Assembly: GCA_963708135.1 (NCBI GenBank)
Contig: OY970192.1
Span: forward strand, 2,413,465-2,477,464
DNA: 64,000 nucleotides
DNA from: an uncultured Gemmatimonadales bacterium
GTDB taxonomy: Bacteria > Gemmatimonadota > Gemmatimonadetes > Longimicrobiales > RSA9
Direction of reading: 5' to 3'
The translations under genes were made by a program, and so were the position numbers. This document shows, piece by piece, positions 12,436 through 43,138 of this stretch. The stretch's first letter is position 1; each line of letters begins with the position of its first letter. The notes beneath the pieces were generated by a model. It was not told where the DNA came from. It worked only from the letters and a program-made list of their open reading frames with translations, and ran no database searches.

Positions 12436-14533
<2,098 letters not shown>

Positions 14534-15612: not shown

Positions 15613-19963
<4,351 letters not shown>

Positions 19964-19972
19964 ATTGGTGTC

Positions 19973-24149
<4,177 letters not shown>

Positions 24150-36508: not shown

Positions 36509-37212
36509 TCACCGGCCTCCACCATGCCGGCGATCTCCTCGTTGATGCGCTCCGCGACGGCCACGGGATCCTCCGCGCCGGTGATCGGCCGCCCGATCAC
36601 GAGGTAGTCGGCGCCGGCACGCACCGCCTCCGCCGGCGTGGCGATGCGGGCCTGGTCGCCCTGCAGCTCGCCCGCGGGCCGGATCCCCGGCGTCACCACC
36701 AGGAAGTCCGCGCCGTAGCGGCGCTTCATGACCTCGGCCTCGAGCGCGGAGGTGACGATGCCGTGGAGCCCCGCGTCCGCGGCCAGCCCGGCAAGGCGCG
36801 CCACCTCCTCGCGCATTGACAGCAGCTCCTTGCCCCAGACCTCCTCGACGTCTCCCGGCGTGAACGACGTGAGCAGCGTCACGCCGAGCAGCCGTGGCCC
36901 ATCGTCTCCGGCCGCCTCCCGTGCCGCCCGCAGCATGGCCGTGCCGCCGGACGCGTGCAGCGTGAGCATCTCGACCTCGAGCTCCGCGGCCGCCCGCACA
37001 GCCTGCGCGACGGTGTTCGGGATGTCATGGAACTTCAGATCGAGGAAGACGCGGCGGCCGCGCTCGCGCAGCGCGTGCACGATCTCCGGACCGCCGCGCG
37101 TGAAGAGGGACGGGCCGATCTTGTAGAAGTCGACGGTGTCGCCGAGGCGGTTCACGAGCTGGAGCGCCCGGGCGACCTCCGGCAGGTCGAGCGCGACGAT
37201 GATCTCAGGCAT
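36505..37212 (-). CDS. pyrF: orotidine 5'-phosphate decarboxylase
   Basis: Start set at MPEIIVALDLPEVARA (cat 37210-37212); DLKFHDIPNTV motif; upstream in-frame part of the ORF-track ORF is an artefact. Confidence 0.9.
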   Translation of the reverse strand: MPEIIVALDLPEVARALQLVNRLGDTVDFYKIGPSLFTRGGPEIVHALRERGRRVFLDLKFHDIPNTVAQAVRAAAELEVEMLTLHASGGTAMLRAAREAAGDDGPRLLGVTLLTSFTPGDVEEVWGKELLSMREEVARLAGLAADAGLHGIVTSALEAEVMKRRYGADFLVVTPGIRPAGELQGDQARIATPAEAVRAGADYLVIGRPITGAEDPVAVAERINEEIAGMVEAGE

Positions 37213-38158
37213 GCGCGGCCTTGTGCGGGGAAGGCGCGCGCCCGCCGGCGTGCGCCGCTCCGACCAGCTCGCGGACGTCGGCCACCCGCTGCCGCCGGCC
37301 GAGCCGTTCGAGTCCAGACAATACACGCGCGGCCGCGCGAGGGTCCGCGAAACTGGCCGTCCCGACCTGCACCAGCGAGGCTCCCGCGAGCAGGTACTGC
37401 ATGGCATCTTCCGCCGTGCGGATCCCGCCCACGCCCAGGATCGGCACGTCCACACGCCGCCTCGCCTGCCACACCGCGTGCACCCCGATCGGCAGGAGCG
37501 CCGGCCCGCTCACCCCACCCGGCCCCTGCCCCAGCACCGGCCGCCGCGTCTCCAGGTCGAAGAGCAGCCCCGGATGCGTGTTCACCAGCGTGAGCCCGTC
37601 CGCCCCCTCGCCCACCACCACCTCCGCCATGCGGCCGATGTCGGGGACGTTCGGCGCGAGCTTGACCACCAGCGGCCGGCTCGTGGCCGCGCGGCAGGCG
37701 CGCACCACCGCCGCGAGCAGGTCCTCGCGCGCGGAGAAGAGCGCGCCGCCCTCCTTCACGTTCGGGCAGGAGACGTTCAGCTCGAAGGCGTGGAAGCCGG
37801 CCTCGCCGTCCAGCGCGGCCACCAGCCGCGCGAACTCCTCGACCGTCGCGCCGGCCACGTTCACCAGCACCCGCGCCCGCCTCAGGCGCTGCGCCAGCCA
37901 CGGCAGCTTCTCCGCGCGGAACGCGTCGAGCCCGACGTTCGCGAGCCCCACGGAGTTCAGCATCCCGGCGCCGAACTCCGCCACCCGCGGCGCGGGGTTG
38001 CCCGCGCGCGGCTCCAGCGTGAGCCCCTTGGTCACGAGCCCGCCGAGCGCATCGAGCTCGATCAGCTCCGAGAGCTCCTCGCCGTAGCCGCACGTGCCGC
38101 TGGCCAGCAGCACGGGGTTCTGGAAGGTCGTCCCGAACAGCTCCTGCGCGAGCTCCAA
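37205..38158 (-). CDS. pyrD: dihydroorotate dehydrogenase (class 1 catalytic subunit); probable TTG start
   Basis: LELAQELFGTTFQNPVLLASGTCGYG...NVSCPNV...; RBS gggagga then ttg at 38156-38158, just after the upstream gene's TGA; the 1049-aa ORF-track ORF fuses this with the upstream gene by read-through. Confidence 0.85.
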   Translation of the reverse strand: MELAQELFGTTFQNPVLLASGTCGYGEELSELIELDALGGLVTKGLTLEPRAGNPAPRVAEFGAGMLNSVGLANVGLDAFRAEKLPWLAQRLRRARVLVNVAGATVEEFARLVAALDGEAGFHAFELNVSCPNVKEGGALFSAREDLLAAVVRACRAATSRPLVVKLAPNVPDIGRMAEVVVGEGADGLTLVNTHPGLLFDLETRRPVLGQGPGGVSGPALLPIGVHAVWQARRRVDVPILGVGGIRTAEDAMQYLLAGASLVQVGTASFADPRAAARVLSGLERLGRRQRVADVRELVGAAHAGGRAPSPHKAAHA

Positions 38159-38169
38159 GCGTCCTCCCG

Positions 38170-39854
38170 TCAGTGCCCGAGGGTGTCCCGGTCCCGGCTG
38201 CGCGCTCTCAGGCGGCCCACGGCCGTCGTGTCCACGAAGGCGAGGGTGTCGGCCCGGAGGAAGAACGCCAGCTTCACGCTGTCCTGCCGCAGGCACGCGC
38301 CGCGTACGCTGTCCGCCCGGATCCCCTTGAGCGCCAGGCTGTCCATGAGGCTGCCGCACGCCAGAATGCACGCTGTCCGCCTCCGCCGCCTTCTTCACGC
38401 TGTCCAGCGCCGCCACCGCCTGCGCCACGCCGGCATCGCGCCCTTCCGCCTCGTGCTCGGCGTTCGTCCGCAACGCCGAGAGCGCCGCCGACAGCCGCTC
38501 CTCCGCGTCCGAGAACGCGCCCGGCTCCGCCGCCGTACCCCGCACCGCCGCCAGGTAGACGTTCCCGTCATAGCCTTCCAGGCGACGTCGCAGCGAATCC
38601 CTCGCCGCGCCCGCAGGCGCCACCGCCGCCGCCGCGAGCAGCGCCTTGGCCGCCCACGGCGAACGCGGCACCAGGTCCGCGTAGGACGTGAAGAAGCGGC
38701 GCGCGAGCACCGGCGCCGCCAGCACGTCGCGGGCGAGCTCCGCCGCCTCGAAGAGCGCCAGCGGCTGTCCGGACGCCGCGAGCCCCGCCAGCACCTCCAC
38801 TGTCTTCAGGCCGTGCAGCAGCGCCTGCGCCTCGGCGTCGGCCACGGCCGGCAGCAGGGTGGCGCGGACCGACGCGAGCCCCGGCAGGTCGCTCACCCGG
38901 GCCAGCTCCCAGCGGGCGAGGCGCACCCGGGCACGCGCCGCCGTGCGCGCGTCCGCGGCCTGCGCCAGATCGTGCGCCTCCCGCCGCGCGGATGCGGTGT
39001 CGCCCGCCTCCTCCGCGAGCTGCGCCCGCTCGAGCAGCAGCGTCGAGCGCGGCCGCGCCGTCCAGAGCGCCTTGCCGACGGGCTCCAGCAGCGACCTTGC
39101 CGTATCCGCCCCCCACCGCTCCGCCGCCGCCCGCGCCAGCGCCGCGATGCTGTCGGCGGCGCCGTCGGCATCCGGATCCCTGAACAGCGCGCCCAGCGCG
39201 GCCGCCGCCCGCGCCCGCCCGCCGCCCACCACGGCGCGGCGCACGGCCTCCAGCCGGGCGTCCCGGCCGAGCGTGCCGGGCGCGCCGGCCGCCGCCTCCA
39301 GGTCGCGCCAGGCGCCCGCGGAATCGTCCGCCGCGAAGCGGGCCCGCGCGCGCCACAGGTGCGCGAACGCCGTCGCCTGCTGCCCCGGCTCGAGCACGGC
39401 GAGGGCGGAGTCGAGCTGGACGAGCCCGGCCGCCGCATCGTCGATCCGCACCTCCGAGGCGCCCAGGTAGGCGTGCGCCTCGGCGCGCATGCGGCGGTCA
39501 CCCGCGAGCGGCAGCAGCCGCGTAAAGCTGACGCGCGCGGAGTCGTACTGCGCGAGCGCGAACTGCGAGCGGCCGATCAGGTAGAGCGCGTCATCCGACC
39601 AGCGGCCGTGGGGCGCGCGCTTGAGGCTCTTGCGCGCCTTCTCCACCGCCTGCCCGTAGTCGGTCCGCGCGGTGGCGCGGTCGCCCTTGGACTCCGCGCG
39701 TTGCGCCTGGCCGTACAGCCGGCGCGCGTTGTAGAGCGAGTTGAAGTACGCGCAGGCCGGGAGGCTGAGCGCCACGAGCGCCGCCGCGAGGATGCCGCGC
39801 AGCCGCGCGCCTCCCGGCGAGCGGCCGGCCGGGGCCGCGCTTCGCCGCGCGCTC
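38170..39854 (-). CDS. TPR-repeat lipoprotein; C-terminal region changes frame near 38368-38378 (apparent 1-nt indel)
   Basis: Start MSARRS...LRGILAAALVALSLPAC (lipobox) in ATGA overlap with amidase stop; GC3 supports the ORF-track frame to ...AEADSV, then the +1 frame (ILACGSLMDSLALKGIRADSVRGACLRQDSVKLAFFLRADTLAFVDTTAVGRLRARSRDRDTLGH*) ending at TGA 38170-38172. Confidence 0.6.
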
Positions 39855-40663
39855 ATCCGCCACCCCCCGCGTGCACCAGACGCGGGTGCGACAGGAAGAA
39901 GGCGTCCACCGCATCCGCCAGCGCGTGCGCGATCCTGTCCTGGAATGCCGAGCCCGCGAGCAGCCGCTCCTCCTTCCGGTCCGAGATGAAGGCCGTCTCC
40001 ACCAGCACGGCCGGCATGAACGCGCCCACGAGCACGCGGAACCCCGCCTGCTTCACGCCGCGGTTCGGCCCCGGCTCGAAGGCCGCCAGCCGCCGCTGGA
40101 CGATCTCCGCCAGGTCGTCGGAGGCGTGGATGTAGTAGTCGTTGCGCAGGTTGTTCAGGATCCTGTCCACGTCCGACCCCGTGGTCGCGCCCGCGTCCTC
40201 GTAGCGAGTCGCCTCGTTCTCCATCTCCGCCACCCGCCGCTCGTCCTCCGTCCGCGCGTCCGAGAGGAAGTACGTCTCGAAGCCGCGCGAGCCGGGGACC
40301 CCGGCGTTGCAGTGGATCGACACGAACAGGGAAGCCGCCCGCCCCGCCTTCCATTCGTTCGCCCGGCGCGGCCGGTCCGCCAGCGAGATCAGCGTGTCCC
40401 GCGCCCGCGTCAGGTGCACCTCGTAGCCCCGCTGCCGCAGCACCGCGCCGAGCTGCTTCGACAGCGCCAGCGTGACGTCCTTCTCGCGCACGCCGTCCGG
40501 CCCGATCCGCCCGGCATCCCGGCCGCCGTGCCCGGCATCGATCACCACGACCCGCCCCGCGCCCATGGTCGGGTGCGCGGAGGCGGTCCGTGCCGTCTGC
40601 GCCACGGCGGACAGGGAGAGGGGCAGCAGCAGCGCCAGCAGGAGGAGGGCTCGCATCATCGTC
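39853..40663 (-). CDS. N-acetylmuramoyl-L-alanine amidase (Amidase_3 family)
   Basis: Start set at MMRALLLLALLLPLSLSAVAQ (signal peptide); VVIDAGHGGRDAG and IHCNA motifs. Confidence 0.85.
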
Positions 40664-41126
40664 CCGCGCGGAAGGCGCGCTCGACCTCCCGCTCGGCCGC
40701 GCGCTTCTTCAGGTCCTCGCGCTTGTCGTAGAGCTTCTTGCCCCGCCCGAGGGCGAGGGTCACCTTGATGTGGCCGTGGCTGAGGTAGAGGTCGAGCGGC
40801 ACGAGCGTGAGCCCCTTCTCCTGCACGGCACCGATCAGCCGCCGGATCTCGGAGCGGTGCAGCAGCAGCTTGCGCGGCCGGACCGGGTCCGTGTTCCAGC
40901 GGCTCGCGGGGTCGTACGGGCTCACGTGCATGTCGTGCAGCCAGACCTCGCCGCGGTCCACGCGGCCAAAGGCCTCGGCCAGGCTCGCCCTCCCCGCCCG
41001 CACCGACTTGACCTCGGGCCCGGTCAGCACGATCCCCGCCTCCCACGTGTCCAGCACGTGGTAGTCGTGGCGCGCCTTCTTGTTCCGGGCAAGGAATTTC
41101 CTCGTGTCCGTGCTGGGCTTGGCCAT
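40656..41126 (-). CDS. smpB: SsrA-binding protein
   Basis: 156 aa, NKKARHDYHVLDTWEAGIVLTGPEVKSVR...GHIKVTLALGRGKK. Confidence 0.95.
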   Translation of the reverse strand: MAKPSTDTRKFLARNKKARHDYHVLDTWEAGIVLTGPEVKSVRAGRASLAEAFGRVDRGEVWLHDMHVSPYDPASRWNTDPVRPRKLLLHRSEIRRLIGAVQEKGLTLVPLDLYLSHGHIKVTLALGRGKKLYDKREDLKKRAAEREVERAFRAGR

Positions 41127-41175
41127 GTGCGATCAATCTATCCGGCGGCGGCGGGCCGCGGAAGTCGTGGCGGGC

Positions 41176-41814
41176 TCAGTAGATGAGGACCGGCGTCCCC
41201 ACGTCCACCAGGTAGTACAGCTCGCGCGCGTCCTCGTTCGTGAAGCGGATGCAGCCGTGCGAGACGCGCCGCTCCGCGGGGTCCGGCCGGAGCACCAGGT
41301 CGGGGTGATCCGTGCCGTGCATCGCCAGCTCGTAGCCGATGTAGAGGGCCGTCGTGCCCAGCGTCCCCGGCTGCCGGCGGTCCGGCGCATCCGCCGACGG
41401 CACCGGCTGCCCCTCCTCAATGTAGGCCCAGTCCGGCTTCACCCACACCGGGTCCTTCTCCTTGCGCTCGACCCGGAACACCCCCCGCGGCGTGCCGAAC
41501 TTCCACGCCCGCTGGCTGTGCTCCAGCCGGAACCCCGTCCCCGTGGCTACGGGCGCGCTCCACAGCACCCGCCGCCCCTCGAGGACGTAGGCCCGGTTCT
41601 CCGCCAGGTGGATCACTACGTAGCGGCCCGGCGCCTCGAGCGCCGCCCGGTCGAGCACGGTCCCGGCGGCGGCGGCGGCGCCCACCTCCGGCGCAGCGGC
41701 GCCGAAGCGCAGCGCAATGCCGTCCGTGCCGTCCTGCGCGCCCGCGCCCCGGGGCGCGAGCGCCAGCAGCGCGAGGCCGAGCGCCTGCCCGGCCCGCGCC
41801 CACGTCCGCCTCAT
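41176..41814 (-). CDS. L,D-transpeptidase (YkuD domain) with signal peptide
   Basis: Start set at MRRTWARAGQALGLALLALAP; catalytic HGCIRFTNEDARELY near the C-terminus. Confidence 0.8.
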   Translation of the reverse strand: MRRTWARAGQALGLALLALAPRGAGAQDGTDGIALRFGAAAPEVGAAAAAGTVLDRAALEAPGRYVVIHLAENRAYVLEGRRVLWSAPVATGTGFRLEHSQRAWKFGTPRGVFRVERKEKDPVWVKPDWAYIEEGQPVPSADAPDRRQPGTLGTTALYIGYELAMHGTDHPDLVLRPDPAERRVSHGCIRFTNEDARELYYLVDVGTPVLIY

Positions 41815-42665
41815 CCCAGCCGCTCCTTCTGCCGTCTGCGGATCCGCTTCATCGCGAAGATCTGCGCCACCTCGCCGCCGAGGATGAACACCACGGCGGA
41901 GTAATAGATCCAGAGCACGAGTACCACCAGCGTGGCCAGGTTGCCGTACATCGAGGTGTAGTCCGCCAGGCTGGTGACGTACCAGGAGAAGCCCTGCTTG
42001 AGCAGCTCGAAGAGGACCGCCGTGAAGGTGGCCGCCACAATGGAGGTGCGCCATTGGGTGCGGCGCGCCGGCAGGTAGCGGTAGACGAGCACGAACATGA
42101 CCCAGATGGAGAGGAACGCCACCGCCTCGACGTAGACCTGGTGCGGGCCCGGCTGGTCGAGCTGGAACCCGAACACGCGCAGCCCGAAGCCCGCGATCAC
42201 GTCCACCGCCACCGTCAGGCCGACGTTCAGCGTGAACAGCGCGCCCGCCGCGAAGACCATCTTCACGTCGAAGATCTTGCCGGCAATGATGCCGCGGTCC
42301 TGGGCCAGGTCGAACACCTGCTTGAGCGTCGAGCGGAGCGTGCCGATCAGGCGGGTGGCGAACCAGATCAGCCCGACCATGCCGATGCTCAGCAAGCCCG
42401 TCGAACTGGTCCACCAGTCCGTGCAGCAGCTGCGCGATCCACTGCTCGAACTGCGGGCTCACGGGGGGAATGCTGCGCAGGACGATGTCGAGCAGCTTGC
42501 CGGTGGGATTGCCCTCCTGCTGGCGCAGGATGAAGCCGGCCATCCCCAGCACGGCCAGGATCAATGGGACGAAGGCGACGAGCACGTTGAACGCGATCGC
42601 CGCCGCCATGAAGAAGATGTCGTCCGCGCCCGCCTTGTCCCAGATCCGGCGGATGAAGTCCTGCC
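41811..42665 (-). CDS. YihY/BrkB-family membrane protein, frame broken by a 1-nt insertion near 42404-42406; start unresolved
   Basis: N-terminal part (IWDKAGADDIFFMAAAIAFNVLVAFVPLILAV...LLHGLVDQ) and C-terminal part (TGLLSIGMVGLIWFATRLIGTLRST...) are in different frames; deleting one base in cagtTcgacg joins them as LVDQSTGLLSIG; a G7 run at ~42650 may hide a second indel. Confidence 0.7.
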
Positions 42666-42697
42666 CCCCGCGCCACCCGCGCCCCGCGGCGGACCCC

Positions 42698-43138
42698 TCA
42701 GTCGCGGGCTTCGTCGTCCTCCTCCAGCTCGACCTCGATCTCGAGATCGGACTGCCCCTCCGCCGTGTACGCCCGGCGCGCTTCGTCGAAGGTCTCGCGC
42801 GTCTCGCGGATGCGACGCTCCATGTCCGCCCGCGTCTCGCGCGCCGCCGTCCGGCCCGTGTCGAGGGCATCGCGCGCCGCGTCCATCGTGCCGCCCACCT
42901 GGCGCCGCACGCTCTCCACCGTGTCGCCGACCGCGTCCTGCACCTGCCGCACCGCGTCCTCCGCCCGGTCGCGGACGCGGCGGGCGCCATCCCGCAGCCC
43001 CTCGCGCGTCTCCCGCCCCGAGCGCGGCGCGAGCAGCAGCGCCGCCCCCGCCCCGAGCATCAGTCCCCAAACGAACGCCCGGAAGCCGCCTGTCTCCCGC
43101 TCCACCACGATGTAGGGTAGCTCCTCGTAGTCGCTCAT
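42698..43138 (-). CDS. YtxH-like (DUF948) protein
   Basis: Start set at MSDYEELPYIVVERETGGFRAFVWGLMLGAGAALLLAP; single TM, then an Arg/Asp/Glu-rich helical region. Confidence 0.6.
   Translation of the reverse strand: MSDYEELPYIVVERETGGFRAFVWGLMLGAGAALLLAPRSGRETREGLRDGARRVRDRAEDAVRQVQDAVGDTVESVRRQVGGTMDAARDALDTGRTAARETRADMERRIRETRETFDEARRAYTAEGQSDLEIEVELEEDDEARD

Follow-up and report, generated by a model that had tools for sequence, protein, structure and literature searches.

A probable single-base sequencing error in a conserved Gemmatimonadota lipoprotein gene creates a false fusion with pyrD

Gene content and order at the locus

We investigated three adjacent genes on the minus strand of the window, by which we mean the whole 64-kb stretch of DNA that was analysed. 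These are, from upstream to downstream, a gene for an N-acetylmuramoyl-L-alanine amidase (Amidase_3, 268 aa; 39853..40659, PF01520 at 3.3e-45); a gene for a lipoprotein with a TPR-like solenoid, which is conserved in the Gemmatimonadota and here carries a one-base insertion (38170..39856); and pyrD (37205..38158), which has a TTG start codon and encodes a class 1 dihydroorotate dehydrogenase of 317 aa, as identified by NCBIfam and Pfam models and by its orthologues. The amidase stop codon overlaps the lipoprotein ATG by 4 nt (ATGA), and the identical overlap was found in all five orthologous loci (L001 and L004 to L007), which suggests that the two genes may be translationally coupled and that the lipoprotein may have a role in the cell envelope.

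The order Amidase_3, lipoprotein, DHO_dh is conserved in the five loci, followed by OMPdecase in the four of them with a longer contig, and the window lipoprotein gene occupies the same position, between the amidase gene and a separate pyrD. In each locus DHO_dh is a gene of its own that directly follows a lipoprotein gene of 543-553 aa, across a short gap or a slight overlap; it is complete in four loci (305-308 aa) and truncated in L004, where the contig ends.

In the window, the TTG of pyrD (38158) sits 11 nt past the TGA of the lipoprotein gene, and direct reading of the sequence places a ribosome-binding site, GGGAGGA, at 38161..38167 of the minus strand, 2 nt upstream of the TTG. The product started at this codon scores above the curated cutoffs for class 1 dihydroorotate dehydrogenases (NF005574, 346 bits against 269; TIGR01037, 318 against 270) and matches PF01180 at 8.8e-75. 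The models match from residues 2-4 onwards, with residues 2-303 falling on profile positions 4-303 of 304, so that the match is full-length from the gene's own start codon, and the protein is 74% identical to the PyrD of L001 from residue 1. As judged from these matches and from the five loci, pyrD is a separate gene, in agreement with a preliminary description of this DNA that had separated it from the TPR gene.

The coding frame is handed over at a single point

We measured GC3 in 20-codon windows, in both frames, along the lipoprotein gene and pyrD. GC3 in the TPR frame is 0.90-1.00 down to approximately 38390 and then 0.45-0.65 down to approximately 38210, whereas the frame displaced by one base has a GC3 of 0.90-1.00 over 38389-38209 and closes at the TGA 38172-38170. 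From 38158 on, that is in pyrD, GC3 in the original frame is again 1.0. Thus the switch to the +1 frame after an ADSV peptide, proposed in the preliminary description, stands, although the abandoned frame is about half G/C at its third positions afterwards and not mostly T/A as had been stated. The placement of the +1 frame's end at this TGA, ahead of the GGGAGGA site and the TTG, agrees with both GC3 and the sequence itself.

A 561-aa protein was reconstructed from the 496 codons of the TPR frame between the ATG at 39856 and position 38369, continued by the 65 codons and the stop of the displaced frame (38367 to 38170). A profile of the orthologue C-terminus is matched by the TPR frame over its positions 19-55 (E = 4e-13) and by the displaced frame over positions 52-119 (E = 4e-21); the two matches meet at positions 52-55, indicating that the frame is handed over at a single point. 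In a 37-sequence alignment, the reconstructed protein is gap-free against its orthologues from LDSV to approximately residue 540, and the near-terminal RDT also aligns, whereas in a single-frame reading all similarity is gone right after ADSV. The invariant residues C500, G511, D515, S516, A520 and C521 are all encoded by the displaced frame. The TGA at 38170..38172 (minus strand) is likewise placed as in the orthologues, which end 2-10 residues past RDT.

At the nucleotide level, alignment of the DNA with locus L001 gave one gap only, of 1 nt, at GTGCATTCTGG. The preliminary description had held that the gene carries an indel, and had named as evidence against this a set of orthologues with a single-frame C-terminus and an equal nucleotide count. 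More than 35 Gemmatimonadota orthologues do read through the C-terminus in one frame, but with one nucleotide fewer: the copies of a recurrent codon motif, described below, are spaced at 27/33/30/30 nt in all five loci against 27/34/30/30 nt in the window, where the motif moves from frame 0 to frame 1, and the window gene measures 1687 nt from ATG to TGA, or 3n+1.

The gap to L001, the profile hand-over and the residue count of the orthologues together place the extra nucleotide at 38365..38368 of the minus strand, in the CATT inside GTG-C-A-T-T-CTG. In every orthologue, DS[VLM] and [AGV]C are separated by two residues; the window has seven bases there (C-ATT-CTG), so that the extra base is C38368, A38367, T38366 or T38365. 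Deleting one T gives ...ADSV-H-L-ACGSL..., and a V-H-L-A-C reading would best fit the K/R-rich column of the orthologues. On the combined sequence comparisons, there is exactly one surplus nucleotide in the lipoprotein gene, and it lies in the CATT at 38368-38365.

The surplus base could in principle be bypassed, with the full-length lipoprotein restored by a programmed +1 ribosomal frameshift or by some other recoding, and two features of the site might be called on here: the consecutive rare T-ending codons CAT and TCT (T occupies only 3% of third positions), and a GGAGG 11 nt upstream. The two codons are, however, simply what the out-of-frame reading yields, and the shift is needed by none of the at least 35 orthologues and is thus not conserved. 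The likeness to frameshifting of the prfB (RF2) type is that one nucleotide would need to be skipped for a full-length protein. The prfB shift needs a Shine-Dalgarno-type spacing of about 3 nt, and the 11-nt spacing found here is wrong for stimulation. Neither candidate P-site codon can re-pair after the shift (CAU to AUU; GUG to UGC), and GUG CAU UCU G contains no in-frame stop, so that the site has no slippery P-site codon beside a stop or hungry codon. The four frameshift sites of the window (see below) also lack a common motif, and we consider programmed frameshifting highly improbable.

A periodic 9-mer reflects a conserved peptide motif

GGACAGC[G/C]T occurs five times on the minus strand between 38276 and 38405, and as had been reported the copies recur every 27-34 nt, at start-to-start distances of 27, 34, 30 and 30 nt. 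Four copies read GGACAGCGT (38405-38397, 38378-38370, 38314-38306 and 38284-38276) and one reads GGACAGCCT (38344-38336). GGACAGCST is matched six times in the whole window, compared with an expectation of 1.49 from dinucleotide-preserving shuffles; none of 100 shuffles reached six, and five of the six matches are clustered inside 130 nt.

The five copies encode, in order, LDSV, ADSV, MDSL, ADSV and QDSV. Copies 1 and 2 give DSV in the TPR frame, and the displaced frame takes over for copies 3 to 5, which give DSL, DSV and DSV; the change of coding frame falls between copies 2 and 3, where GC3 also switches (approximately 38390-38360). DSV-type peptides were originally said to arise in either frame. 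They do occur in each, but never in both frames at one copy: the frame that reads DSV changes along the run. Three further copies of the motif, with threonine, follow in the displaced frame (38187..38255, minus strand), namely ADTL (GAC at 38250), VDTT (GAC at 38232) and RDTL (GAC at 38187), and nearly every orthologue retains an RDT[IL] close to its C-terminus.

We identified the same D-[ST] codon motif, all in one frame, in all five orthologous loci. At the protein level it is a D-[ST]-[VLM] motif with a period of 9-11 residues, located in the C-terminal helices of the family. The serine codon of the motif differs among species (AGC, AGT, TCC, TCG and TCA), indicating that the motif is held at the level of the protein. 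On this comparison, the 9-mer is what a conserved D-[ST]-[VLM], or D-[ST]-[VLMA], peptide motif looks like when written in codons (xxG GAC AGC GTx).

At the DNA level, the periodic 9-mer does not form a tandem repeat. Tandem Repeats Finder returned no rows at a minimum score of 30, and in a direct-repeat search only the 9-mer core was common to all five units, with some pairs of units extending outside it to only 14-22 nt at 71-87% identity.

Codon bias alone was considered as the source of the exact 9-mer and rejected, as AGC makes up only 29% of the serine codons here and five AGC in succession exceed what that bias predicts. The closest orthologue, L004, likewise favours AGC; serine and threonine alternate at these positions across the family, and AGC to ACC is one step. 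These comparisons point to a codon choice that would have been inherited and not recently duplicated. We also considered a nucleotide-level constraint, prompted by a very rare GTA in ADSVR that is common to the window and L001, and rejected it, given that L004 to L007 use GTG, ATG, GTG and GTC.

The preliminary description had further offered recombination between repeat units as a source of the frame change, and recombination or slipped-strand mispairing between the 9-mers or their approximately 30-nt units would be in keeping with a shift that falls within the run of 9-mers. Unit number and spacings are, however, equal to those of the five orthologous loci bar one base, and that base lies in the non-repeated spacer CATTCTG. 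The units have little sequence in common beyond the 9-mer, and an exchange of 30-nt units would alter the length by approximately 30 nt and not by 1. Contingency loci and phase variation offer a likeness in the form of a short periodic sequence near a frame shift in a gene for a surface protein. The resemblance goes no further: the units are not arranged head to tail as DNA repeats, the length differs from that of the orthologues by 1 nt, the indel lies outside the 9-mer, and the periodicity is protein-level and conserved across the phylum with codons that vary by species. This part of the earlier account is not upheld; such a mechanism is very unlikely, and there is no causal link between the 9-mers and the frame shift.

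The long open reading frames are fusion artefacts

Two long reading frames run across the boundary between the lipoprotein gene and pyrD. The first is an ORF of 1049 aa (37205..40354) that begins out of frame inside the amidase gene and continues through the lipoprotein gene and pyrD. The second is a protein of 883 aa with PF01180 (P0001), on record at NCBI and ENA from a contig of 5.45 Mb, which is the window's own product and was the best match of the 561-aa query. The window has a G+C content of 70.8%, and at approximately 71% G+C wrong frames often stay open.

Taken at face value, these frames would mean that the organism makes a real lipoprotein-PyrD fusion, and the frame is indeed open without a break from 39856 to 37205, with a protein on record to match. 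Against this, GC3 is just 0.45-0.65 over the supposed linker of 70 residues, which has no similarity to any orthologue, while the other frame matches the orthologues at 4e-21. The two genes are separate in five relatives, open wrong frames are common at this base composition, and an exported lipoprotein joined to a cytoplasmic flavoenzyme would probably be topologically incoherent. We regard the probability of a real fusion as close to nil. Since pyrD is separate in the five loci and the PyrD models match from the TTG, the sequence evidence is that both the 1049-aa ORF, already suspected as a fusion artefact, and the 883-aa record are artefactual, and the lipoprotein-PyrD "fusion" is not to be read as a new domain architecture.

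Further single-base insertions in the window

We scanned the whole window by GC3 phase for junctions at which the frame changes with no stop codon in the upstream frame. The scan identified three single-base insertions besides that in the lipoprotein gene, in fusA, in rpoB and in a BrkB-family gene. Two other flagged positions proved to be no more than the ordinary boundaries between pyrD and pyrF (37205-37212) and between smpB and ykuD (41176).

In fusA, an extra G lies at 12784/12783 (AGC-G-GAG-ATG); nonsense follows the junction, the true continuation is one base out of phase, and the reconstruction is gap-free against solved EF-G. In rpoB, seven bases (GTCTGTC, 20837-20831) stand where two codons belong, so that the uncorrected frame reads ...ILETHLGWV and then approximately 300 nonsense residues, and here too the reconstruction is gap-free over the junction, against solved RpoB. 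The BrkB/YihY-family gene has an extra T at 42405/42404 (CAG-T-TCG), with LHGLVDQ in one frame and STGLLSIG in the other, where the orthologue reads DQSTGLLSIG; this insertion yields another false ORF, of 604 aa (41176..42990).

All four defects in the window consist of one extra base each. Long homopolymers are absent from all four sites, a doubled base (TT, TT and GG) could account for three of them, and no motif common to the four sites was found. Judged by this window, the source assembly appears to contain an insertion error about every 16 kb.

A sequencing or assembly error as the most likely cause

The lipoprotein insertion thus has three single-base counterparts in the window, two of them in essential genes, indicating that it is probably a sequencing error and not a feature of the strain. 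EF-G and RpoB are essential, and could not lose the approximately 110 and 285 C-terminal residues, respectively, that the insertions would cost them. Like insertions in both of these genes make error far likelier than biology. The defect recurs one base at a time in neighbouring genes, essential genes included, as expected of a sequencing or assembly indel error. We therefore consider it most likely that the cause is a sequencing error, and not a mutation in the organism. Our preferred reading, to which we give a probability of roughly 0.83, is that the lipoprotein gene contains one surplus base, left as an uncorrected sequencing or assembly insertion, which falsely fuses the ORFs of the lipoprotein and of pyrD.

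The steps of such an error would be as follows. Upstream of 38368-38365, the true frame is the one that the ORF finder follows. An extra base would have entered at this point as an uncorrected sequencing or assembly insertion, and downstream of it the true frame is displaced by one base, encodes the conserved last 65 residues and stops 11 nt before the pyrD TTG. The wrong frame, meeting no stop at 71% G+C, runs on into pyrD, which is in the same phase, and gives rise to the 1049-aa ORF and the 883-aa record.

A genuine mutation in the organism is an unlikely origin of the extra base. The lipoprotein would then have lost its C-terminal 65 residues in favour of a nonsense tail running into PyrD, and PyrD would still be made from its own ribosome-binding site and TTG. 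The base does stand in the deposited sequence, with the 883-aa protein on record at both databases; the lipoprotein is probably not essential, so that the change might be tolerable; and pyrD retains its own ribosome-binding site and start codon. The like defects in fusA and rpoB, within the same 64 kb, would however be intolerable. The displaced frame also shows no decay, with a GC3 of 0.9-1.0 and every invariant residue in place, which only means that a mutation would have to be very recent.

It is extremely improbable that all four insertions are real and that the organism restores the frame after transcription or in translation, for example through site-specific RNA editing or an unusually efficient +1 frameshifting at sites free of any known motif; were this so, recoding would operate throughout the genome, with the lipoprotein site at 38365-38368 as a single example. 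An exact 43-mer scan of public genome and metagenome contig collections found no identical sequence and no second strain, and a search for related loci among the genome contigs confirmed no relative.

An uncorrected error in assembly, the preferred reading, has ready parallels. Two reports (PMC12007338; PMC8812927) describe leftover indels, with broken or fused genes as the result, as a recognised feature of assemblies from long reads. As there, single-base insertions in the window break a conserved gene and merge ORFs, four times in 64 kb. The principle of the reference-based correction tools (PMC12007338; PMC8812927) is comparison with orthologues, which restores the broken genes of the window too. 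The window departs from the classic nanopore error pattern, as its four defects are insertions without exception and long homopolymers are not involved at any of them.

What the locus shows is an ordinary frameshift of a single base, most probably an error in the sequence, and its importance is chiefly one of annotation hygiene: other odd long ORFs or split genes of the source assembly deserve equal suspicion.

A lipoprotein family of the Gemmatimonadota

A minor positive result is the lipoprotein family itself, which combines a TPR-like solenoid with a D-[ST]-periodic helical tail containing two invariant cysteines. The reconstructed 561-aa protein is 42-55% identical, end to end, to at least 35 orthologues of 530-582 aa (mostly 530-558 aa), and all of those with a source name are from Gemmatimonadota (Gemmatimonadetes or Longimicrobiales MAGs). 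The lipobox Cys35 and the AYFN motif that follows it, as part of AYFNxLYNA, are invariant, with C35, Y37, N39, Y42, N43 and A44 identical in 35 sequences including the window protein. At the other end, the family shares a C-terminal block, LDS..(9)..DS...C....DSL...G.R.DS.R.AC.R.D[ST] ... RDT, which the window protein contains only after the frame switch at 38368-38365; it is then gap-free and has the invariant D485, S486, D494, C500, G511, D515, S516, A520 and C521.

No Pfam domain was found in the approximately 35 orthologues, and in Pfam and NCBIfam the lipoprotein itself had no matches beyond sub-threshold ones to TPR, YbgF, BamD and PorW models. The NCBIfam matches are weak and confined to residues 22-191, where the BamD model TIGR03302 (21.5 bits against a cutoff of 81.4), the YbgF/CpoB model TIGR02795 (24.9 against 90.1) and the PorW/SprE model NF052312 (21.4 against 250) match only the first TPR-like repeats. 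The C-terminal D-[ST]-periodic helices, with the two invariant cysteines, matched nothing in Pfam or NCBIfam. Foldseek against the PDB recovered generic TPR superhelices only, with a top query TM-score of 0.48 for SprE (8gl8_I); LbcA (7rqf) was also recovered. The protein thus resembles periplasmic TPR lipoproteins (BamD/YfiO, YbgF/CpoB, PorW/SprE and LbcA) in having an N-terminal lipobox cysteine ahead of a TPR-like alpha-solenoid, but it scores far below the cutoffs of the BamD/YfiO, YbgF/CpoB and PorW/SprE families and its D-[ST] tail matches no model. As far as these sequence searches go, it is a member of an unnamed and unannotated family, so far seen only in the Gemmatimonadota.

Finally, an AlphaFold2 model of the reconstruction, built on a 35-sequence alignment, is all-helical with a mean pLDDT of 90.4. 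Residues 40-440 form the TPR-like solenoid, and a 61-residue helix (447-507) runs unbroken over the junction at 496/497, to be followed by helices at 512-522 and 526-537. In this model, a period of approximately 10-11 residues equals three helical turns and would line up the D-S pairs on a single helical face, and C500 and C521, both invariant, may be joined by a disulfide that bridges the helical hairpin.

Single-base insertions in other genes of the window

In the fusA gene for EF-G, on the minus strand, we identified a frameshift caused by an extra G at 12783-12784 (AGC-G-GAG-ATG; ORFs 12650..14533 and 12436..12780). The terminal ~45 residues of the 627-aa fusA ORF are nonsense, and the genuine final 114 residues of EF-G are encoded in the next frame. 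When the frame is restored, the sequence reads [17 protein letters not shown], and its alignment with solved EF-G contains no gaps.

Similarly, rpoB (minus strand; ORFs 19938..24149 and 19973..20827) contains one extra base at 20831-20837, where GTCTGTC stands in place of two expected codons. The 1403-aa ORF ends in ~300 nonsense residues that overlap the start of rpoC. The next frame encodes the genuine RpoB C-terminus ([12 protein letters not shown]...), which gives a gap-free alignment with solved RpoB.

Finally, for the BrkB/YihY-family membrane-protein gene, also on the minus strand (ORFs 41176..42990 and 41811..42395), we identified a frameshift caused by an extra T at 42404-42405 (CAG-T-TCG), at a site where an orthologue reads DQSTGLLSIG. 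The 604-aa ORF is a false fusion that first crosses the upstream gene out of frame, then takes in the BrkB N-terminus, continues out of frame once more and finally runs into the gene for the L,D-transpeptidase YkuD.

Conserved gene order and possible translational coupling of the amidase and lipoprotein genes

A tightly packed string of genes at 37205-42990 on the minus strand is retained across distant Gemmatimonadota, in the order ytxH-like, brkB, ykuD, smpB, amidase, TPR lipoprotein, pyrD, pyrF, a 144-aa gene and cysS. Envelope genes are interleaved with the housekeeping genes smpB, pyrD and pyrF. Gains and losses within the string are minor, with ykuD missing in two loci and an MscS gene inserted in one.

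The Amidase_3 gene (39853-40659, minus strand), located upstream of the lipoprotein gene, encodes 268 aa in the window, in contrast to 376-402 aa in four orthologous loci (L001, L005-L007). The window protein lacks an N-terminal domain of ~120 residues that is present in its relatives, and there is no space for this domain because smpB ends directly at the amidase start codon.

The amidase stop and lipoprotein start codons share a 4-nt ATGA overlap in the window (39853-39859) and in all five of the orthologous loci compared (4001-4004 in L001, 819-822 in L004, and 3001-3004 in L005-L007), suggesting that the two genes are translationally coupled and that the cell-wall amidase is functionally linked to the TPR lipoprotein. 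A 920-aa protein of metagenomic origin, P0035, is an amidase-lipoprotein fusion, which could be real or could be another frameshift artefact.

C-terminal region of the lipoprotein

Residues 447-537 of the reconstructed lipoprotein correspond to positions 38518-38245 of the window, on the minus strand, and are covered by no Pfam or NCBIfam model. This region is predicted to form one 61-residue helix and two short helices, with a D-[ST] motif that repeats approximately every three turns of the predicted helix, and contains two invariant cysteines, C500 and C521.
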